Source: Megasphaera elsdenii DSM 20460 (lineage in GTDB: Bacteria; Bacillota; Negativicutes; Veillonellales; Megasphaeraceae). Taken from it: a DNA stretch of 32,000 nt. Below the pieces are notes generated by a model. That model saw only the letters and a list, made by a program, of their open reading frames with translations, was not told where the DNA came from and did no database searches. Both the position numbers and the translations under genes were made by a program. Below, piece after piece: positions 22,622 to 31,882 of this stretch (position 1 is the first letter of the stretch; each line of letters opens with the position of its first letter). The DNA lies in assembly GCF_003010495.1 (NCBI RefSeq), contig NZ_CP027570.1, forward strand, positions 120,001 through 152,000. The letters are read 5' to 3'.

Positions 22622-24076
22622 TTATCCGCAAATCTTATCGAGGCGCTGGAGGACCTTGTCGCGGCCCATGAGGGCGACGATGACGTTCAGATCCGGGCCG
22701 TGCATGACACCGGTGACGGCGACGCGGATGGGCATGTAGACGAACTTGCCTTTGACCTTGAGGCCCTTCTGGATTTTCTTGAACAGGGGCTGTACCGTGT
22801 CGGGCGTGACGTCGTCGAGGGCAGCCAGTTCATCGCGGAACATCTTGAGGACGGACGGAGCCGTTTCTTCTTTGAGGACAGCTGCCGTTTCTTCATTTTC
22901 CGGTGCGTAGTCGTCGGTGAAGAAGACCTTGGCAGCATCGACAATCTGAGCGCCGTACTGGACGTGTTCGCGCATAGCCGCGCAGACGGATTTCAGCCAA
23001 GCGGCTTCCGTTTCATCTGGCGTTTCGCTGGCATAGCCGGCCTTCTGCAGGTGCGGCAGGCAGACGGCATAAAGCTGGTCTTCATCGAGCTGCTTCATAT
23101 AATGGAAGTTAATCCAGTTCAATTTTTCGATGTCGAATACGGCCGGGTTCTTGGCGACGCGGTCGAGGGTGAACTGTTCGATGAGTTCGTCGCGGCTGAA
23201 GATTTCCTGATCGCCATCGGGCGTCCAGCCGAGGAGAGCCAGGAAGTTGACCAGGGCATCAGGCAAATAGCCCATGTCGCGGTACTGCTGGACCGAGGTG
23301 GCGCCGTGGCGCTTGCTCATCTTCTTCTTGTCGGCGCCGAGGATCAGCGAGACGTGGGCGAACTTCGGTGCTTCGAAGCCCAGGGCCTTGTAGATGACGA
23401 GCTGGCGCGGCGTGTTGGAAAGATGTTCTTCCGCGCGGATGACGTGGGTGATGTGCATCAGGGCATCGTCGAGGACGACACAGTAGTTATAGACCGGGAT
23501 GCCGTCGGATTTGACGATGACGAAGTCGCCGACATTGTTGGAGTCGAAGGATACGTGGCCGCGGACGAGGTCGTCCAGTTCAATCGTTTCGTTCTTCGGC
23601 GTCTTGATACGGATGACATGGGGACGGCCTTCCCTGAGGTACTGTTCGACCGTTTCCTTGGGCAGGTCGGCACATTTGCCGGAGTAGACCGGCGTTTCGC
23701 CCTTGGCCAGCTGAGCCTGTTTTTCTGCTTCCAGTTCTTCTGGCGTACAGAAACAGTAATAAGCCTTGCCTTCAGCTAAGAGCTTTTCCGTATATTTCTT
23801 GTAGATGTCCAGGCGTTCCGTCTGGCGGTACGGGCCGTTCGGGCCGCCGACATCGATGCCTTCATCCCAGTTGATGCCCAGCCATTTCAGGGCTTCCTTG
23901 ATATTTTCTTCTGATTCCGACGTCGAACGCTTGCGGTCCGTATCTTCGATGCGGACGACGAACTTACCGTGGTTGTGCTTGGCAACGAGGTAGTTGAACA
24001 GTGCCGAACGGGCACCACCGATGTGGAACGGGCCTGTCGGGCTCGGAGCAAAACGAACGCGTACTTCCTGTGACAT
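22622..24076 (-). CDS. gltX: Glutamate--tRNA ligase
   Basis: 484 aa. N-terminus VRVRFAPSPTGPFHIGGARSALFNYL (HIGH region) and KMSKRHG (KMSKS). Confidence 0.97.
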   Translation of the reverse strand: MSQEVRVRFAPSPTGPFHIGGARSALFNYLVAKHNHGKFVVRIEDTDRKRSTSESEENIKEALKWLGINWDEGIDVGGPNGPYRQTERLDIYKKYTEKLLAEGKAYYCFCTPEELEAEKQAQLAKGETPVYSGKCADLPKETVEQYLREGRPHVIRIKTPKNETIELDDLVRGHVSFDSNNVGDFVIVKSDGIPVYNYCVVLDDALMHITHVIRAEEHLSNTPRQLVIYKALGFEAPKFAHVSLILGADKKKMSKRHGATSVQQYRDMGYLPDALVNFLALLGWTPDGDQEIFSRDELIEQFTLDRVAKNPAVFDIEKLNWINFHYMKQLDEDQLYAVCLPHLQKAGYASETPDETEAAWLKSVCAAMREHVQYGAQIVDAAKVFFTDDYAPENEETAAVLKEETAPSVLKMFRDELAALDDVTPDTVQPLFKKIQKGLKVKGKFVYMPIRVAVTGVMHGPDLNVIVALMGRDKVLQRLDKICG

Positions 24077-24108: not shown

Positions 24109-25278
24109 TTATTGATAGCTAAGGACCATGGCTGCCGCCTGGGCTGCCATGCCTTCTTCCCGGCCGACGAACCCCAATTTCTCTGTCGTCGTCGCCTTGA
24201 CGGAGACAGCAGCCTTAGGGATACGCAAGGCCTCGGCAATATTCGCAATCATCTGCGGCACATAGGGCTTGATTTTAGGCCGTTGTGCCAATAAGGTCAC
24301 GTCGAGATTGACGATGCGGCAACATTTCTCCCGCAACAGATGGCGGACCTTTTCTAAGAGGACCAGGCTGGAAATGTCCTTGAAAGCCTGATCCATATCG
24401 GGAAAATACGTCCCGATATCGCGGAGCCCGGCGGCTCCCAGCAGGGCGTCCATGATGGCGTGGATGACGACGTCGGCGTCAGAATGGCCGTCGAGGCCCC
24501 GTTCAAAGGGAATCTCGACGCCGCCCAGGACCAGGCGCCGCCCTTCCTTCAGGCGGTGGACGTCATAGCCTGTGCCGATGCGCTGGACTTCCCGTCCTTT
24601 CATGTACAGGGACAGAATGGGAATGTCGTCGCGCGTCGTCACCTTGCGGTTCTTCTCGCTCCCTTCAAGGATGACGACGGGCACGCCCATGGCTTCGACG
24701 AGGGATGCATCATCGGTAGCCTGAATGCCTTCAGCCCGGGCATGCTCATGGGCTTCCACGAGCAGGTCACGGTGAAAAATCTGCGGCGTCTGGGCCGCTA
24801 CCAGGCGGCTGCGGTTCAGCGTATGGAGGCGGCCGTCGTCGCCGCGGACCTTGACCGTATCCTTGAGGGGAATGCCGTAAATGGCGGCCCGGGCCGTTTC
24901 CATCATGGCCGCGCCCTGGTCATACCAGTCGGGACCGGCAAAGGGCCGGGCGCCGTCGTGGACTATGACCACGTCCATGTCGCGGCTGACGGCCATGAGG
25001 CCGTTGTAGACCGAATCTTCCCGCTCGGCTCCGCCCAGGGCATAGCGCACGGGCTGGATGGGATGGAGGTCATCGACAAGGCGGCGGATTTCCTTCTCAT
25101 CGACGCGGGAGTGGACGATGACCACTTCGCTGACCGACCGGGCCGCAAAGATGTGGCGCAGGGTATGCGCCAGGACGGGCTCACCGCACAAGGGATAGAA
25201 GAGCTTGTTCCGCTCGTAGCCGAAGCGGCTCCCCGTGCCGGCCGCTACGACGATGACAGATACTTTCACACATTTCAC
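24109..25278 (-). CDS. ispDF: Bifunctional IspD/IspF (MEP cytidylyltransferase / MEcPP synthase)
   Basis: 389 aa. IspD N-terminus [13 protein letters not shown]. IspF C-terminal half has [11 protein letters not shown] and [19 protein letters not shown]. Confidence 0.92.
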
Positions 25279-26475
25279 CTACTCATTTGCAATCTTGACG
25301 AATATCATGCGCCCAGCCGACGTCTGCAAGACCGACGTCACCGTAACGGGCACGGTAGAACCGATGTATTTCTGACCATCTTCGACGACGATCATCGTGC
25401 CGTCATCGAGATAGGCCACGCCCTGGTTCTCTTCCTTGCCAGCCTTGACGATGAGGACGTTCATGTGTTCCCCAGGGATGCGGGCCGGTTTCAGGGCATT
25501 GGCCAGGTCGTTGATATTGAGGACGGCCACGCCCTGGAGGGCAGCGACCTTATTCAAATTATAGTCGTTGGTGACGACTTTGGCATTGATCTTGCGGCCC
25601 AGGCGGACGAGCTTGGAATCGACGCCCTGGACGTCATCGAAATCATCGTTGATGATGCGGACTTCGACGTAATTATCTTCCTGCATCTGCTTCAGGATAT
25701 CCAGGCCGCGGCGGCCCTTATTGCGCTTCAGCAAATCCGACGAATCGGCGATGAGCTGCAGTTCTTCCAGGACGAAGACCGGCACCAGCAGGGGCCCTTC
25801 GAGGAAGCCCGTACTGCAGATTTCGGCGATACGGCCGTCGATGATGGCACTCGTATCGAGGAGCTTGCCGGAAAAGTCCATATCCTTGCGCTTGCCGCTG
25901 TGCTCCTTGCCGGACTTGCCCAGGCGCAGGTTGCTGACCAGGGCGATGATTTCGCTCTTCTTGCGGGTGGCAATGCTCATGCCGGCATAGCCGAAGACGA
26001 TGCTGAAGACGATCGGGCCATAGGCCCCGATGATCGGCAGACGGGCGAACGCCAGGCCAATTAAATTCGCAATAATAAGTCCAAAAAGCAATCCCAGCGT
26101 CCCGACGATGATATCCTGGCTCTCGAAATCACTCAGGCCCGATTCGATGCGGTGAATCGCCGCCCAGATCAGGCGCAGCACGAACGGTGAAATCCCATAT
26201 CCCACCAGGGCCCCGACGAGAATGCCGATGATGTAGGCCACGATGGTGATGATAGTCGTCCCGAAAATACTGCCGTGGAAAAATTCCCCTTCTATTTCGG
26301 CACTGATGAAGGGCGTCGTAATGACCTGGTCGGCAATCATGACAAAAATGACCGCCATAATCAGGACGATGACCCCTTTCATGATGTTGTCGGCCACATT
26401 GCGCCCATTGAATTTCTTCGACTTCGGCTCCTCGTGGTCCAATCCATATTTATCTTCCATAGAGTAGTAAGACAC
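25279..26475 (-). CDS. yacL: PIN/TRAM-domain membrane protein (YacL family)
   Basis: 398 aa: N-terminal TM helices, a PIN domain (LLDTSAIIDGRI) and a C-terminal TRAM-like beta domain. The start is uncertain: the GTG at 26475 abuts the SD, and the ATG at 26460 is 14 nt from it. The stop abuts the ispDF start. Confidence 0.82.
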   Translation of the reverse strand: MSYYSMEDKYGLDHEEPKSKKFNGRNVADNIMKGVIVLIMAVIFVMIADQVITTPFISAEIEGEFFHGSIFGTTIITIVAYIIGILVGALVGYGISPFVLRLIWAAIHRIESGLSDFESQDIIVGTLGLLFGLIIANLIGLAFARLPIIGAYGPIVFSIVFGYAGMSIATRKKSEIIALVSNLRLGKSGKEHSGKRKDMDFSGKLLDTSAIIDGRIAEICSTGFLEGPLLVPVFVLEELQLIADSSDLLKRNKGRRGLDILKQMQEDNYVEVRIINDDFDDVQGVDSKLVRLGRKINAKVVTNDYNLNKVAALQGVAVLNINDLANALKPARIPGEHMNVLIVKAGKEENQGVAYLDDGTMIVVEDGQKYIGSTVPVTVTSVLQTSAGRMIFVKIANE

Positions 26476-26498: not shown

Positions 26499-26528
26499 AC
26501 TATACTAGTTTACCACATTTCCCGTCAA
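26499..26528 (-). promoter_or_regulatory. Candidate promoter of the yacL-ispDF-gltX operon
   Basis: Minus strand reads TTGACG (26523-26528), an 18-nt spacer, then TATAGT (26499-26504). Confidence 0.4.
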
Positions 26529-26584
26529 TGTACCACAGGTGGCGTGTAAAGTTTTTGCGCAGGTTCGTCTATAACATTTTGAAC

Positions 26585-26619
26585 TAGTAAATCGTAATTT
26601 AGTAAATTACGATTTACTA
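26585..26619. repeat. Perfect 16-bp A+T-rich inverted repeat with a 3-nt loop, 9 nt past the stop of the restriction-enzyme-like gene
   Basis: TAGTAAATCGTAATTT-AGT-AAATTACGATTTACTA, read directly. No U-tract follows on either strand, so it is not a canonical intrinsic terminator. Confidence 0.9.
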
Positions 26620-26628
26620 AATAAAATC

Positions 26629-29505
26629 TCATTCGCACAAATACCGATAGAGCTTATCTTCTACCGGCTTATCCAAGAGAAATTGGAAATTGACAATGGG
26701 CAGCTGCTGTCCTTTGTCATTGGCAATGGTCGTTTCGACGGGTTTCCCTAGAACGGTTAAATCACCGATATAATAGAAATCGGACCCTTCGGCATCGCTC
26801 TTTTTCACAAACAATAATTTTCGCGTGTGTTCATCGCAAATCGCCGGAATCTGCGACGATGTCAGGTGAATCCGGGCCCGCGTCATCCAGCTGAACTGCT
26901 GCGGCGAAACGAACTGGTCTTCGTACTTCGTATTGGCTGAAATGTCTTCCCGTTTCTCGTAGGTGACGAAAATGGGACACGTAGCGCCGACAATCTGATA
27001 GCCATTGAGCGTGCCTTCACGGTTCGTTTCATAATTGAGGATACGCGACACATCTTTTCGGGAATACCGGCCGTAGCGGACAAAGCCCCGGACGATTTCC
27101 GGTTCGTCATGAACATAGAGATTTTCAAAGCGATACGTTCCATAGTCAAGGATATCCTGAACATAACGTTGAAATTCTTCATTGGCTTTCAAGTCATTCC
27201 AATAGGAGGTGGCCACATACGCATGATTTTCAAAGGAAATAAGCGGCTCACTACCGTATTTTTTTCTAGCCGTTTTCGTAAAAAATTGCAAATTCAACAA
27301 GCGGGCCACGCTTTCCATCGTTTCCGTAGACGGCAGAAAATGGTATGTTTCGCTCATTTCCCTAGCCAGCGCCGCCGTAGACCAAGATGATTCCATCAAT
27401 AAATGGCGCAAGACCAACAATTCCTCTATGCGTTTGCCATTAGCCAGTTCCAAACTCAGCATCTTCAATACCGCCCGATGGGCTTCGGTCAAGGTCGAGG
27501 CAAAAGGCTCCATGTATTGAACAAATTCAAAGAAAGACTCCTTCTTCGCCACAAACAAGGCCGGATCCTTGTCGCCAAAGCGGACAAAATCCATCATCAT
27601 GGGTTGACGTCCCAAGCGATAGGCCATATTACGGTATGATTCTTTCAAATCCCGCAGATCTGCCAAAGCACTTTTGGCATCAATCGCCGCATAAATCCGT
27701 TCTTTGGCGATATCGTCAAAATGAACCGACGTCGGACCCGGCAAAAAATTGACCTGCATGAGACGGCGGACAAAATCCTTATCGTATGTCCGGTCGCCAA
27801 ACAGGGCAATGGGAAGCAGGAAATTATTTTCATAATTGCCGATGAAATCGAGAACTTCCAAATAGCGCTTATGTGGATATTTTCGCAGTCCCCGGCCTAA
27901 CTGCTGGACAAAGACGATCGCCGACGTCGTCGGACGCAGCATGATGACCTGATTGACCTGGGGAATGTCGACGCCTTCATTGAAAATATCGCAAGTAAAA
28001 ATATAGTCGAGATACTGCAGGTCTTCTGCTGCCTTCGCCTCCAAATGACCAATGGCTTCGCTTCGTTCCCTTTCGCTCGACGCACCCGTCAAGGCAACGG
28101 CTCGTTTTCCATGCTGGCGAAAAGTTTCAGCCAGGGCCTGCGCTTCGTCTACATTGCGGCAAAAAACGAGACCTTTGATGCGTTCAGCGTCACTGCCATA
28201 CAAATCAGCATAATATAATATATGTTTTACACGTTCTTCACAAGTCAGTAAGGCGAAATCACTCATGTCATCTAACACCTTGCCGTTGACCGTAATTTCG
28301 CTGATGCCGTGATAGTGAAAAGGAACGAGCATATTTTCTTCCAGCGCATCGTGCAAACGGATTTCATAAGCAATATGATGATGGAACAGCGCATAAATAT
28401 CGAAATCATCGGACCGCTCCGGCGTCGCCGTCATGCCTAACAGAAACTTGGGCTGAAAATAGCGAATGACTTTTTGATACGTCGCAGCACCCCCGTGATG
28501 CACTTCGTCAATGACAATATAATCAAAGGTGTCGGGCGCAAAGGTATGAAGGATTTCGTCTTGGGACAAAGTCTGAATGGTCGCAAAAATATAAGGCTTA
28601 TCCAATTCTTTATCATGCCCTGTCAGCAGCCCCGTATCGGCCGGATTGATGCCAATCCGGACATAACTATCCCGTGCACTTTTGACGATGAGCTCCCGAT
28701 GGACCACAAAGAGAAACCGCCGGGGCTGCATTTTTAAGACGTCAAAGGCTGATAAATAGGTTTTCCCAGTCCCCGTCGCTGAAATGAGCAAGCCTCGATC
28801 CTGCCCGTCATCACGAAGCTTTTGAATCCCAGCTAAAGCCGCCTTTTGCATGGCATTAGGTTGAATTTTATGGAAGGGCACATATACGGACTGCCGTTTC
28901 GGCTTATTATGCGTGTACACAGACTCGTAGGCCTGAATCCACGCTTCGTCCACGACTTCCGCCGTATCCCACAAAGCATCAAATTCTTCCTTCGTCTGCC
29001 GGATGAGAGAGCCGTTTTCTGCCGATGTAAAGAAAACATTCCATTCCTGATTGTGCGTCAAGGCGTTAGCCGTCATATTGCTGCTGCCAATGACCATGGT
29101 ATAATTTTCCGGCCCTGCCTGGGGACGATGGAAAAGATAGCCTTTGGCATGAAAAGCCCGTTCTTCTGTCACCATGCGCAATTCAACATTGGGAAACTTC
29201 AACAATTCCCGCAACGCACCGGGTTCGGTAAAATTCAAATACTGAGAGGCTAAAATTTTTCCCGTCGCCTTCCGATTCTGAATGAGCGCATCTTTCAGGC
29301 AGGCAATGCCGCTTTTCGTCAAAAACGCCACGGAAAACAAAAAAGAATCACAGACGTACAGCTGCGACAAAATCGTGTCGAGAACCTTGCGCTTTTTCTC
29401 TTTATTATTGGTCAGAATCTTGGGAACATAGCGTTGGTCCGCTTCTACCGTATAATCAATAAATCCTTCGCGCAGGCACTGTTCCAAAGCCCCGTATTCA
29501 ACCAT
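26629..29505 (-). CDS. SauUSI-like type IV (modification-dependent) restriction endonuclease: PLD nuclease + SF2 helicase/ATPase + C-terminal DUF3427-type domain
   Basis: 958 aa. One HKD motif: FHAKGYLF...VIGSSNMT (His119 at 29149-29151). Helicase motifs: I ATGTGKT (aa 242-249), II DEVH (333-336), III MTATP, VI QQLGRGLR. The C-terminal ~200 aa (RYSRKDVSRILNYETN...LLFVKKSDAEGSDFYYIGDL) fit my recollection of DUF3427. Size and domain order match SauUSI. Confidence 0.78.
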   Translation of the reverse strand: MVEYGALEQCLREGFIDYTVEADQRYVPKILTNNKEKKRKVLDTILSQLYVCDSFLFSVAFLTKSGIACLKDALIQNRKATGKILASQYLNFTEPGALRELLKFPNVELRMVTEERAFHAKGYLFHRPQAGPENYTMVIGSSNMTANALTHNQEWNVFFTSAENGSLIRQTKEEFDALWDTAEVVDEAWIQAYESVYTHNKPKRQSVYVPFHKIQPNAMQKAALAGIQKLRDDGQDRGLLISATGTGKTYLSAFDVLKMQPRRFLFVVHRELIVKSARDSYVRIGINPADTGLLTGHDKELDKPYIFATIQTLSQDEILHTFAPDTFDYIVIDEVHHGGAATYQKVIRYFQPKFLLGMTATPERSDDFDIYALFHHHIAYEIRLHDALEENMLVPFHYHGISEITVNGKVLDDMSDFALLTCEERVKHILYYADLYGSDAERIKGLVFCRNVDEAQALAETFRQHGKRAVALTGASSERERSEAIGHLEAKAAEDLQYLDYIFTCDIFNEGVDIPQVNQVIMLRPTTSAIVFVQQLGRGLRKYPHKRYLEVLDFIGNYENNFLLPIALFGDRTYDKDFVRRLMQVNFLPGPTSVHFDDIAKERIYAAIDAKSALADLRDLKESYRNMAYRLGRQPMMMDFVRFGDKDPALFVAKKESFFEFVQYMEPFASTLTEAHRAVLKMLSLELANGKRIEELLVLRHLLMESSWSTAALAREMSETYHFLPSTETMESVARLLNLQFFTKTARKKYGSEPLISFENHAYVATSYWNDLKANEEFQRYVQDILDYGTYRFENLYVHDEPEIVRGFVRYGRYSRKDVSRILNYETNREGTLNGYQIVGATCPIFVTYEKREDISANTKYEDQFVSPQQFSWMTRARIHLTSSQIPAICDEHTRKLLFVKKSDAEGSDFYYIGDLTVLGKPVETTIANDKGQQLPIVNFQFLLDKPVEDKLYRYLCE

Positions 29506-29514
29506 GGCTGTCGC

Positions 29515-29913
29515 CTACTTTCCAGAAAGTTTTTTCATGATGGGCACATCGGCCGGTGCCCAGTCCAATGTCGGCATATCTTCGGGAGTCATCCACTTCG
29601 CATCGACGTGTTCTTTGCGAACAAAGTCGGGCTTGTCCAAATGGCAATAGAAGGCATACATGGTCATGGAAAAATCAGGGTAATCGTGATGGACCGTCAT
29701 GTACAAATCCGATTCCTTGACAGACACATGGACATCCATTTCTTCCCGCAGTTCCCGTTCAATAGCCGTATGCTTGGCTTCACCCGGTTCAATCTTGCCG
29801 CCAGGAAACTCGTATTTGAAACTGACATAGTCAAATTTCCCCTGGCCCCGTTCCATGCAAAGAATTTTTCCATCATACTCCAAAATCGCAGCTACCACTT
29901 CTAAATGCTTCAT
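29515..29913 (-). CDS. NUDIX hydrolase, MutT/NudG-like (deoxy)nucleoside-triphosphate pyrophosphohydrolase
   Basis: 132 aa from the ATG at 29913 (SD GAGGAA, 6-nt spacing; the track begins one codon earlier at TTG). Nudix box GGKIEPGEAKHTAIERELREEMDV fits Gx5Ex7REUxEExGU, with D in place of the final G. Confidence 0.85.
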   Translation of the reverse strand: MKHLEVVAAILEYDGKILCMERGQGKFDYVSFKYEFPGGKIEPGEAKHTAIERELREEMDVHVSVKESDLYMTVHHDYPDFSMTMYAFYCHLDKPDFVRKEHVDAKWMTPEDMPTLDWAPADVPIMKKLSGK

Positions 29914-29950
29914 CAAAAATTCCTCTTTTCTGTATTATTTCCTGTACCTT

Positions 29951-31156
29951 CTAAAAAACGTATTCCGACAGGCGTCTCATGGCTTCTTCCAGGCGGGTCC
30001 GGGGCAGGGCCAGGTTCAGGCGCATGGCGTCTTTCCAGGCGAATTTCCGGCCATCTTGCCAGGCGACGCCGACGTCCCAGGCTTTTTTCAGGAGTTCCGG
30101 CAGGGTCATCTGGTTTGCTTTCAAGTATTCCCCACATTCGACGAAGAGCATGTAAGTCCCCTGCGGCAGGCTGACCTGGCAGCCCGGGAAATGGTCCTGG
30201 ATGTACTGGGTCGCATAGCGGCAGTTGCTTTCCAGGACCTGGTTCAATTCGTCGGTCCATTCGTGTCCGTCCTGGCTATAGGCGCCGATCAGGGCGTGCA
30301 TGGAAAGGACGTTCATTTCGTTATAACAGGTCCGTTGTCCATGCTGTGTAATCTTTTCTCGCAAAAGCGGATTGGCGATGATGTGGTAACTGCCGATCAG
30401 GCCGGCCAGGTTGAAGGTTTTGGACGGAGCATAGAAAGCGACCGTACGCTGGCGGGCGTCTTCGGAGACGGCTGCCGTCGGGATATGGCAGTGGCCTTGG
30501 AAAATGATGTCCGACCAGATTTCATCGCTGATGACCCAGACATCGTATTTTTTGAAAAGGGCCATGGCCTGTTCGATTTCCCAGCGTTCCCAGACGCGGC
30601 CTGTCGGGTTCTGAGGTGAGCAGAAAATGGCCAAGTGGACATGGTGCTTCTTGATTTTTTCTTCCATGTCGGCGAAATCCATGCGCCAAATGCCCTGTTC
30701 TTTGCGAAGGGGGCTGAAGACGACGTGCCGGCCGGTGTTGCTCAGGTCCCCGATGAAGCCGGGATATGTCGGGCTGTGGACTAAGACGGCGTCACCCGGT
30801 TCGGTCAGAACCTGGATAGTGCTAGTAATGCCGCCGTGGACGCCATTTTCATAGCCGATCATGTCGCGTGTCAGTTCCGGCCAGTCATGACGGGTCGTCT
30901 GCCAGTCGATGATGCGCTGGTAATAGGCATCAGACGGCAGGAAATAACCAAAAAGCGGGTGTTTCAACCGTTGTTCCATGGCCTGGACGACAGCCGGGCA
31001 AGTCGCGAAACTCATGTCCGCTACCCACATGGGGATTTCATCGAAACCGGGCTTGGCCTTATCCGGTTCAAAGCCCCAAACGGTCTTGCCAATGCCATCG
31101 AAAGCCGTAGCATCCTTACCAGCTCGGTCAATAATCGTCGTAAAATCGTATTTCAT
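29951..31156 (-). CDS. patB: PatB/MalY-family PLP-dependent C-S lyase (cystathionine beta-lyase type aminotransferase)
   Basis: 401 aa. N-terminus YDFTTIIDRAGKDATAFD and class I/II aminotransferase features (CSPQNPTGRVW, APSKTFNLAG with the PLP lysine). Confidence 0.82.
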   Translation of the reverse strand: MKYDFTTIIDRAGKDATAFDGIGKTVWGFEPDKAKPGFDEIPMWVADMSFATCPAVVQAMEQRLKHPLFGYFLPSDAYYQRIIDWQTTRHDWPELTRDMIGYENGVHGGITSTIQVLTEPGDAVLVHSPTYPGFIGDLSNTGRHVVFSPLRKEQGIWRMDFADMEEKIKKHHVHLAIFCSPQNPTGRVWERWEIEQAMALFKKYDVWVISDEIWSDIIFQGHCHIPTAAVSEDARQRTVAFYAPSKTFNLAGLIGSYHIIANPLLREKITQHGQRTCYNEMNVLSMHALIGAYSQDGHEWTDELNQVLESNCRYATQYIQDHFPGCQVSLPQGTYMLFVECGEYLKANQMTLPELLKKAWDVGVAWQDGRKFAWKDAMRLNLALPRTRLEEAMRRLSEYVF

Positions 31157-31512
31157 CTAATTTTTCTCACCTTTCATCATAAAAGTTGCGATTCGTTGTT
31201 CATAAAGGCCCGTCAAAGCCCCAGAATAGGCTGTGGTAAATTCTCTCTAGCAGGTTTCCCACGTGGAAGCCCCTACACAACGGCCATTGGCCGTGTATTT
31301 TTTTCAATGAAAAATTCCTCTTTATCATAGTTCTTTCTCCATTGTACATCATCAGCCCTGCAAAAACCACTTTATCCTTCTTGATTATGTCGCAGCTCAT
31401 TCCTACTGAACCATTTCTAAGCTGCCTATGTGGCAGCTAACAACATCCTTTTGTATGAATAGCCGGATTCTACCTAAGCTTGCGTCAGTTCTTTTTATCT
31501 TCCTCCAGCTAA

Positions 31513-31790
31513 TTATCCCCCTACGGTCGATTCCTGTTGGGCCAAAAAGGCTTCTGCATCTTGGCGAATTTTTCCCAAATCCAGGCCCTGGTCGCGGGCA
31601 CCGAAAATGCAACCGCAATAGGGCTGGCGGTAGAGGTGGTAGGCTTCGGTCATTTTCGTCGATGTAAGGAAGCCGTTGTTTTTCTTGAAATCCGTCGGCA
31701 AATAAGCGTAGCCGTATTGGTCTTCGATGTCCAGGCCGACTTCATTGATGACCTGTGAGTTCTTATGGGGGCTGACGGTCAGAAGTTGAT
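31513..31790 (-). pseudogene. queH: C-terminal fragment of epoxyqueuosine reductase QueH (DUF208); N-terminal half missing
   Basis: Hand translation gives ...LLTVSPHKNSQVINEVGLDIEDQYGYAYLPTDFKKNNGFLTSTKMTEAYHLYRQPYCGCIFG..., matching the QueH C-terminal pattern (TTLLvSP...YrQ.YCGC). Upstream of ~31790 the frame hits TAG and TGA, and no CCAPC-type N-terminal motif appears in any frame out to 32000. Confidence 0.65.
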
Positions 31791-31793
31791 GTA

Positions 31794-31832
31794 ACCCCCA
31801 ATTGTTAGACCTAACATCTAACTATTGGGGGT
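31794..31832. repeat. 15-bp inverted repeat (1 mismatch) with a 9-nt loop at the queH truncation point; possible mobile-element terminus
   Basis: ACCCCCAATTGTTAG-acctaacat-CTAACTATTGGGGGT, read directly. TTGAT at 31786-31790 immediately precedes it. Confidence 0.7.
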
Positions 31833-31882
31833 CAGCTCACAGCTCAAATACGACAGCTTCTTTTTTTATACATTATCTGCCT

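Follow-up and report, generated by a model that had tools for sequence, protein, structure and literature searches.

Why does a gene for a small Nudix hydrolase stand directly in front of a gene for a restriction enzyme? The question is raised by a locus of Megasphaera elsdenii DSM 20460, which we examined within a window of 32,000 nucleotides (contig NZ_CP027570.1, positions 120,001 to 152,000); coordinates below are those of this window unless another locus is named. Both genes lie on the complementary strand (-), between positions 26629 and 29913, and the second encodes a relative of SauUSI, a type IV restriction enzyme of Staphylococcus aureus. Descriptions of type IV enzymes present them as nucleases that act alone and require no partner for protection, as the host lacks the modification. 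The reading that we favour, with a little better than even confidence, is that the pair forms a mobile two-gene type IV cassette in which the Nudix protein would clean the nucleotide pool and so shield the host from its own restriction enzyme.

The gene pair and its conservation across genomes

The Nudix gene (29515..29913, -) encodes 132 amino acids from an ATG at 29913 and ends with the stop codon TAG at 29517-29515. This start is the most likely one, with a Shine-Dalgarno-like AGAGGA 7 nt 5' of it; the open reading frame (ORF) called mechanically (133 amino acids) opens at TTG 29916. A spacer of 9 nt, GCGACAGCC (29506..29514, -), separates the Nudix stop from the ATG at 29505 of the restriction gene, an ORF of 958 amino acids (26629..29505, -) whose ribosome-binding site is just a weak AGG at -11..-9 relative to the start codon. 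An initial annotation, made from the letters of the window, had described the two genes and their 9-nt spacing in the same way, and its coordinates all hold. Its remark that the second gene has no convincing Shine-Dalgarno sequence is also fair.

Judged by sequence, and by every feature checked, the large gene encodes an intact SauUSI-family enzyme. It aligns with the SauUSI structure PDB 7CLG (E 3.3e-213; query residues 8-957 to 7CLG 9-952), matches the PADLOC model mREase_IV (3.8e-220) and has 7944 homologues. Its Pfam domains are PLDc_2, ResIII, Helicase_C and DUF3427. The PLD-type nuclease domain (amino acids 97-179; 28969..29217, -; PLDc_2 3.1e-9) carries H119-x-K121 ... GSSN143 ... E154, and the residues H119, K121 (in FHAKGY), N143 and E154 are invariant in an alignment of homologues (A1). 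The catalytic mutants made in SauUSI were H119A, K121A, N139A and E150A (Xu 2011, PMC3141236), and the window enzyme agrees in numbering for the first two. In the SF2 helicase/ATPase core (27883..28869, -; ResIII at amino acids 213-364, 4.3e-39, and Helicase_C at 438-541, 3.9e-11), the motifs Walker A SATGTGKT, DEVH, TATPER and QQLGRGLR are present and likewise invariant in A1. The C-terminal DUF3427 domain (amino acids 682-956; 26638..27462, -; Pfam 4.3e-84) covers profile positions 1-279 of 280, and DUF3427 is described in the literature as a predicted modified-DNA-binding module. SauUSI cleaves DNA that contains 5-methylcytosine (5mC) or 5-hydroxymethylcytosine (5hmC), and its nuclease requires ATP or dATP (PMC3141236). 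By homology, the window enzyme is predicted to perform the same ATP-driven cutting of 5mC and 5hmC DNA.

The initial annotation had set as its first test a conserved adjacency of Nudix and SauUSI genes across unrelated taxa, and a census of related loci bears this out. An alignment of thirteen homologues of the restriction enzyme was scanned against GTDB, with one genome per species, and gave at least 580 relatives. We analysed the best 80 of these (42-97% identity; a few labels of metagenome-assembled genomes (MAGs) are obviously mis-binned). A homologue of the window Nudix (phmmer, E 1e-17 to 1e-92) adjoins the restriction gene in 79 of the 80 loci. It lies directly upstream on the same strand in seventy-two of the 80, including one (L025) with a second copy downstream; downstream and convergent in five; and downstream and co-oriented in two. 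At the one remaining locus, no Nudix gene was found beside the restriction gene. Stop-to-start gaps are within ~30 nt either way in 64 of the 69 cases measured, with many 1-nt gaps and 4- or 8-nt overlaps. Given linkage in 79/80 loci and gaps mostly this short, the adjacency is far beyond chance.

Going by record titles, the 80 loci represent six or more phylum-level groups: Bacillota (Negativicutes, Clostridia and Bacilli), Bacteroidota (many), Fusobacteriota (Ilyobacter), Gammaproteobacteria (four), a spirochaete MAG and a Bathyarchaeota MAG. When all ORFs of the 80 loci were clustered, Nudix and the restriction enzyme were the only conserved families, and no third conserved gene, such as a methyltransferase or a nucleotide kinase, appeared among these clusters. 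Pairwise identities among the Nudix proteins follow those among the restriction enzymes (r 0.79; Mantel test, 0/999 permutations). One pair was seen on a 250-kb plasmid of Hymenobacter (L053), and another adjoins a gene for a relaxase on what may be a conjugative element (L090, 1902-7343); these settings fit horizontal spread of the pair.

Composition sets the two genes apart from their surroundings. The GC content is 46.9% for Nudix and 47.4% for the restriction gene, against 55-61% for the neighbours patB, yacL, ispDF and gltX, and GC at third codon positions is 0.549 and 0.536, against 0.70-0.75 for the same four genes. The two had been called equally A+T-rich, which these values confirm. 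The resulting low-GC island (26500..29950) coincides with the cassette, between patB and yacL-ispDF-gltX-cysS.

Comparison with other genomes locates the boundaries of the cassette. One locus (L001) resembles the window closely, with 97% protein identity and 93% DNA identity over 7.2 kb. Among the more diverged Megasphaera alleles (69-77% DNA identity), homology runs from the Nudix start codon to the stop codon of the restriction gene. On that side, cassette homology ends at about 26642-26655, and homology of the backbone restarts at about 26537-26557. In L005 (3422-6867), a 76%-identical allele of the cassette stands inverted at the same yacL-proximal site, in a yacL-ispDF backbone that is 92% identical, and other Megasphaera genomes hold the cassette at different sites. 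Since homology spans exactly the two ORFs, and since inverted and relocated copies occur, the Nudix-restriction pair has been horizontally acquired, and it moves and is replaced as a unit. The coupled two-gene module seen by the initial annotation is thus a co-inherited, tightly spaced and foreign cassette.

The annotation knew of no described Nudix-SauUSI partnership; on this point it was mistaken. Xu 2011 (PMC3141236) reported a conserved MutT/Nudix gene, SAUSA300_2432, linked to sauUSI, put the number of SauUSI-like genes with this linkage at 60 or more, and did not settle what the linked Nudix does. When the Nudix gene of S. aureus Newman was deleted (Monk 2012), the strain did not turn transformable, and restriction persists. 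Since this Δnudix strain still restricts, the Nudix protein is not a subunit required for cleavage. In Newman, the deletion primer IM224 of the same study shows the nudix TAA and the sauUSI ATG to be 1 nt apart. MutT homologues beside SauUSI homologues were also noted in Streptococcus (Bell 2020), and PADLOC lists the Nudix family as a phage-defence candidate, PDC-S07. Our literature search for a link between Nudix proteins and type IV restriction by way of modified dCTP returned nothing beyond these mentions of 2011, 2012 and 2020.

The pairing itself has therefore been known since 2011, and what the window adds is an uncharacterised orthologue from Megasphaera. Like the window, S. aureus has the Nudix gene (SAUSA300_2432) followed tightly by the restriction gene (SAUSA300_2431), with 1 nt between them against 9 nt here, and SauUSI has the same full-length architecture as the window enzyme. 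The Megasphaera pair differs in belonging to the Negativicutes, in having a well diverged restriction enzyme (7CLG, E 3e-213) and in lying within a visible low-GC cassette.

The Nudix protein and its likely substrate

The Nudix protein is a single domain by Pfam (NUDIX 1.5e-15, 57.8 bits against a cut-off of 21.1; NUDIX_4 1e-13), and its 132 amino acids include no regulatory domain. Its Nudix box (residues 39-61, GKIEPGEAKHTAIERELREEMDV; 29731..29799, -) follows the pattern GX5EX7REUXEEXGU, with the catalytic residues R53, E54, E57 and E58 intact and the penultimate G replaced by D. These four and E45 are invariant across the 79 Nudix homologues linked to restriction genes. The protein matches the PADLOC family PDC-S07 over its full length (4.6e-43).

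Among solved structures, 3GWY of Bacteroides fragilis is the best match by far (E 1.9e-42, residues 1-130), with E. coli NudG (2RRK, E 3e-16) and E. coli MutT (1MUT, E 6e-12) well behind. The window Nudix is ~50% identical to 3GWY over its full length. The median identity of 3GWY to the 79 linked Nudix proteins is also 50%, against 47% for the L001 orthologue of the window Nudix (~98% identical to it) when compared with the other linked proteins, and ~35% for NudG. Across the 79 linked proteins, conservation is 86-100% at seven residues (C19, Y78, F81, C90, H102, W118 and D122). Three more (Y29, H76 and P79) are invariant in a twelve-sequence alignment (A2) and occur in most, not all, of the linked Nudix proteins sampled. 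All ten of these signature residues are found both in the window Nudix and in 3GWY. NudG has just H102 and D122, and lacks C19, Y78, F81, C90 and W118. At position 122, the window Nudix and NudG have Asp where MutT has Asn, which we take to be the Asn with which MutT reads 8-oxoG.

The second-best solved relative is PDB 5X1X (E 8e-21), deposited as 'mutator mutT protein'. In a HMMER alignment it has most of the signature (C19, Y78, C90, H102, W118 and D122), with the exception of F81. No publication on 5X1X was found in the literature.

The 3GWY protein is Q5LBB1_BACFN, an enzyme screened against 74 Nudix substrates (Nguyen 2016, PMC5158307). Its kcat/Km values are 6.7e6 M-1 s-1 on 5-Me-CTP, 4.8e6 on 5-Me-dCTP and 4.4e6 on 5-hydroxymethyl-dCTP; the value on 5-OH-dCTP is 8.5e4 M-1 s-1, about 50-fold lower, and activity on canonical NTPs is much lower (PMC5158307). 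The kcat reaches 45 s-1 on 5-hydroxymethyl-dCTP and 14 s-1 on 5-Me-dCTP, with Km of ~3-10 µM, and cleavage occurs at the alpha-beta bond (PMC5158307). Nguyen 2016 read the enzyme as a sanitiser of mutagenic nucleotides and made no mention of restriction (PMC5158307). Because this closest characterised relative prefers 5-substituted (d)CTP and shares the signature residues, the window Nudix most likely hydrolyses 5-methyl-dCTP, 5-hydroxymethyl-dCTP and 5-methyl-CTP, as far as substrate can be carried over by homology. The initial annotation had suggested modified dCTP as the substrate of the Nudix, and this is backed by the kinetics of a ~50%-identical enzyme and by shared residues. The predicted specificities also match, since the bases of the triphosphates preferred by Q5LBB1 (5mC and 5hmC) are those that SauUSI restricts in DNA.

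Q5LBB1 thus resembles the window Nudix in its signature residues and in its PADLOC family, and differs in that its nearest relatives are standalone, without a type IV neighbour. E. coli NudG (Orf135), a pyrophosphatase that acts on CTP, on dCTP and on 5-methyl-dCTP, has H102 and D122 in common with the window Nudix, and 5-methyl-dCTP is its best reported substrate. Its kcat/Km on 5-methyl-dCTP is 0.3-1.3e6 M-1 s-1, ~4- to 16-fold below the 4.8e6 of Q5LBB1. The NudG model NF007834 (pyrimidine (d)NTP diphosphatase) is the best-scoring NCBIfam model for the window Nudix, at 83.6 bits against a cut-off of 156, so the protein, which is ~35% identical to NudG, is not an equivalog of it.

Other partners of the Nudix clade and its proposed role

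The same clade was also examined from the Nudix side, in ten exact-protein look-ups chosen blind to their neighbours and in a scan of viral contigs. Both samples are small and biased. Several loci of the viral scan are close relatives, and its IMG/VR contigs may be prophage-adjacent cellular DNA. Five of the ten look-ups were standalone genes, three stood beside an intact or decayed SauUSI-like gene (one of these on a relaxase-bearing element), and two came directly before a protein of the PADLOC family PDC-S41. We considered whether the B. fragilis enzyme is itself linked to SauUSI and ruled this out; relatives 98%, 86% and 65% identical to 3GWY are standalone and adjoin DprA-like, HTH or transpeptidase genes. 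In one locus (L092, 4001-7054), an intact Nudix gene is followed by a fragmented SauUSI-like gene, consisting of a 254-amino-acid PLD+ResIII piece and a later fragment. Decay of the nuclease beside a surviving Nudix, as here, is one way in which standalone Nudix genes can arise.

The two PDC-S41 loci (L088, 4001-8399, from Vibrio sp. RE86, and L095, 4001-6402) have the Nudix gene first, with a 0-nt gap or a 4-nt overlap. PDC-S41 combines an N-terminal PD-(D/E)xK-like motif, read by eye, with a DUF2075/Schlafen-type helicase, and in Vibrio the pair lies in a defence island between hsdR and mcrB. PADLOC lists PDC-S07 and PDC-S41 each as a single-gene candidate, whereas they are seen paired here in two unrelated contigs. 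No mention of PDC-S41 was found in the literature searched. In Peribacillus faecalis, a fragment like the C-terminus of PDC-S41 (L065, 2952-3356) sits just upstream of a Nudix-SauUSI pair and may be a remnant of partner exchange.

In the viral-contig scan, a Nudix with the same signature (43% identical), or a close relative of the clade, lies 3 nt before, or overlaps, genes for HNH proteins of ~220-280 amino acids. These loci are L099-L104, L113, L117 and L118; the full signature is present in L099, L102 and L113, and L117 and L118 are more divergent. The HNH partners match the PADLOC type IV model PDLC03656, and in the nuclease domain they most resemble EcoKMcrA (4e-18 to 3e-22), ScoMcrA and TagI. 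For both HNH proteins tested (L102 and L117), the best PDB match is EcoKMcrA, 6GHC. The partner in L118 has no Pfam match and was assigned by its homology to the others, and in L105 a homologue of the HNH proteins stands upstream of the Nudix instead. The HNH enzymes paired with the Nudix gave no match to an ATPase domain. Their N-terminal reader is weakly assigned, with SAD_SRA and DUF3427 matches below the Pfam threshold. A shared reader domain with SauUSI was considered and dropped, as BLASTP of these proteins to the window restriction enzyme is not significant (E 0.23-1.3).

Five further loci (L107, L109, L110, L111 and L116) contain a second SauUSI subtype (PDLC03659, ~1000-1050 amino acids) with a Nudix of a sister subclade immediately downstream. 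In L106, the Nudix gene adjoins a protein with a weak SRA match. An ORF of 421 amino acids in L119 (3131-4396) has a C-terminal Nudix domain (NUDIX_4 1.5e-21) fused to an N-terminal region that has no Pfam match and is homologous (8e-19) to the weakly SRA-like protein of L106; a modified-base reader may here have been joined to a Nudix.

The two genes are thus asymmetric in their association. The nucleases are nearly always found with a Nudix, and the Nudix is often alone, which is expected of a protective partner. Nucleases that are not homologous to one another have recruited one Nudix clade, and restriction of modified cytosine is the only theme that they evidently share. Because the HNH enzymes are paired as well, the Nudix appears tied to modified-cytosine restriction rather than to helicase chemistry.

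The mechanism that we infer runs as follows. The Nudix protein would be translated first, from the message that it shares with the restriction enzyme, and would convert 5-methyl-dCTP, 5-hydroxymethyl-dCTP and 5-methyl-CTP to monophosphates and pyrophosphate, keeping these nucleotides at trace levels. The replicative polymerase would thereby be kept from writing the target bases of the restriction enzyme into host DNA. Such precursors could come from salvage of degraded methylated DNA, including DNA just destroyed by the enzyme itself, from phage synthesis of modified dNTPs, or from turnover of RNA containing m5C, which would fit the equal activity on 5-Me-CTP. It is also plausible that phages assembling cytosine-modified genomes out of modified dNTPs would be affected secondarily. 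The self-protection model would explain the near-obligatory linkage, the upstream position and the matching specificities, as well as the dispensability of the Nudix for restriction and the standalone copies, which would act as general sanitisers.

By analogy, the Nudix would take the place that the methyltransferase has in a classical restriction-modification system, as a self-protection partner that is co-transferred and co-expressed with the nuclease. Unlike that methyltransferase, it would act on the nucleotide pool and not on DNA, and it is dispensable in laboratory culture. A further parallel is human DCTPP1, a MazG-type dCTP pyrophosphatase which clears 5-methyl-dCTP and related modified dCTPs and so averts distorted DNA methylation. 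DCTPP1 differs from the window Nudix in its all-alpha MazG fold, its eukaryotic origin and its lack of a restriction partner.

Several points weigh against the self-protection reading. Its central link, between the Nudix and toxicity of the restriction enzyme, is one that we infer, and the hazard presupposes that bacteria phosphorylate 5-methyl-dCMP efficiently. The S. aureus Δnudix mutant was obtained without a reported growth defect (Monk 2012), so any protection must be conditional and dispensable in rich laboratory medium. The initial annotation had expected that loss of the Nudix gene would change either restriction or the toxicity of the enzyme; the part on restriction does not stand in S. 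aureus, and this mutant does not probe toxicity in cells exposed to 5-methyl or 5-hydroxymethyl nucleotides. Modified-dCTPase activity is also not exclusive to restriction contexts, as the nearest relatives of the characterised enzyme are standalone, and the specificity of the window Nudix is transferred by homology. Finally, 79/80 overstates the number of independent events because many of the best 80 loci are related, and the correlation of identities (r 0.79) may partly reflect species phylogeny.

Other roles for the Nudix have to be weighed against this one. The main rival, rather unlikely though compatible with self-protection, is that the protein serves mainly as a second anti-phage arm, depleting phage-made 5-hydroxymethyl- or 5-methyl-dCTP so that the phage is starved or forced to use plain cytosine, and leaving the restriction enzyme to cut the modified DNA that remains. 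The turnover of Q5LBB1 (45 s-1 on 5-hydroxymethyl-dCTP and 14 s-1 on 5-Me-dCTP) would suit this task, PDC-S07 is a phage-defence candidate in its own right, and the Nudix occurs in defence islands such as that of Vibrio, with hsdR and PDC-S41/McrB. Glucosylation of 5hmC in phage DNA happens after replication, and an attack on the pool would also hit phages whose glucosylated bases escape SauUSI. However, Km values of ~3-10 µM and a near-obligatory, coupled position upstream better fit a sanitiser of trace contaminants, phage kinases could re-phosphorylate the monophosphate product, and standalone copies lie among housekeeping genes. We find it improbable that the Nudix is a general antimutator or house-cleaner that merely hitchhikes with the restriction gene on a mobile cassette. 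5mC is mutagenic through deamination. Nguyen 2016 took Q5LBB1 simply as a sanitiser of mutagenic nucleotides. Half of the Nudix-centred contexts are standalone, and the Δnudix mutant has no restriction phenotype. Yet hitchhiking leaves unexplained the cross-phylum linkage in 79/80 loci, the adjacency that is kept after the Nudix has been inverted or relocated, and its recruitment by McrA-like HNH enzymes and by a SauUSI subtype with the opposite gene order.

The remaining alternatives fare worse. That the Nudix regulates or signals to the restriction enzyme, by sensing released modified nucleotides or by making a 5-methyl-dCMP effector, would accord with their tight co-expression and with the L119 ORF, where a Nudix is fused to a homologue of what may be a modified-base reader; but SauUSI is fully active alone in vitro, and in vivo without the Nudix, and the single-domain Nudix of 132 amino acids has no regulatory domain, which makes such a role very improbable. 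Helicase-type ATPases release ADP and Pi rather than pyrophosphate, and Nudix enzymes produce pyrophosphate and do not consume it. Management of cofactors or products for the nuclease conflicts with both of these facts, with the low activity of Q5LBB1 on canonical NTPs, and with the pairing of the same Nudix with HNH enzymes that gave no ATPase-domain match; although it was proposed in the original SauUSI paper (Xu 2011), we give it scarcely any credence. Least credible is an ordinary MutT-type 8-oxo-dGTPase that is a neighbour by coincidence, an alternative that the initial annotation had kept in view and that the census effectively refutes. Relatives are annotated '8-oxo-dGTP diphosphatase' in sources, but the window protein falls below the cut-offs of both MutT models (TIGR00586, 71.1 bits against 97.9; NF008044, 63.9 against 148), and the closest characterised enzyme prefers 5-substituted (d)CTP. 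We rejected an ordinary MutT on the 79/80 linkage, the TIGR00586 score and Asp122.

A broader form of self-protection, to which we give somewhat less than an even chance, is that pool-level immunity is routine in type IV restriction of modified cytosine, with one Nudix clade recruited repeatedly by unrelated nucleases (two SauUSI subtypes, McrA-like HNH enzymes and PDC-S41). The Megasphaera cassette would then be a typical example, and for the window itself the result is modest. If self-protection is true, type IV systems would also be safeguarded through the nucleotide pool. This could account for a linkage of genes that has lacked an explanation since 2011, and it may extend to several families of type IV enzymes. 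It would also suggest that mis-incorporation is a real risk for bacteria living amid methylated foreign DNA or phages that make modified dCTP. On the practical side, SauUSI-type barriers restrict how far many Firmicutes and gut anaerobes can be manipulated genetically, and small Nudix enzymes of this kind would be ready-made reagents to remove or measure 5mdCTP and 5hmdCTP.

Signals and genes around the cassette

Upstream of the Nudix gene, a gap of 37 nt (29914..29950, -) carries the AGAGGA and is too short for a terminator. It separates the cassette from a housekeeping gene for a PatB-type C-S lyase (patB, 29951-31156, -), and read-through from patB into the Nudix gene is possible. Consensus scans for a promoter or terminator of the cassette gave nothing above shuffled expectation, and no site was found 5' of the Nudix gene.

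Directly 3' of the stop codon of the restriction gene is a perfect 17-bp A+T-rich hairpin (26584..26620, -; folding free energy -21 kcal/mol, z -5.85). None of 200 shuffled sequences was equally stable, and the hairpin has no U-tract. It sits in a junction of ~90 nt that is conserved neither with other alleles of the cassette nor with the backbone, and could serve as a terminator or as a junction element.

On the far side of this junction is a second housekeeping gene, for a PIN/TRAM protein (25279-26475, -) that we presume to be YacL-like. Between it and the cassette lies a promoter-like TTGACG-18-TATAGT (10/12 matches; 26499-26528, -), whose position suggests that yacL keeps its own promoter 3' of the insertion. 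The ORFs at 24109-25278 and 22622-24076 (both -) were labelled ispDF and gltX from their translations only, and cysS is next.

Three minor features lie on the other side, beyond patB. A single match to Rfam CRISPR-DR4 (31414-31441, -; 36.6 bits against a gathering threshold of 35; GTTAGCTGCCACATAGGCAGCTTAGAAA-like) has no repeats around it that would form a CRISPR array, and could be an orphan repeat, or no more than a hairpin. An ORF of 62 amino acids (31516-31701, -) looks like a truncated queH remnant, since its match to the QueH profile (4.4e-10) is confined to the final 35 positions. Just 5' of this ORF, a 23-nt imperfect inverted repeat (31787-31839; 83% complementary, with a 7-nt spacer) could mark an insertion or deletion scar.

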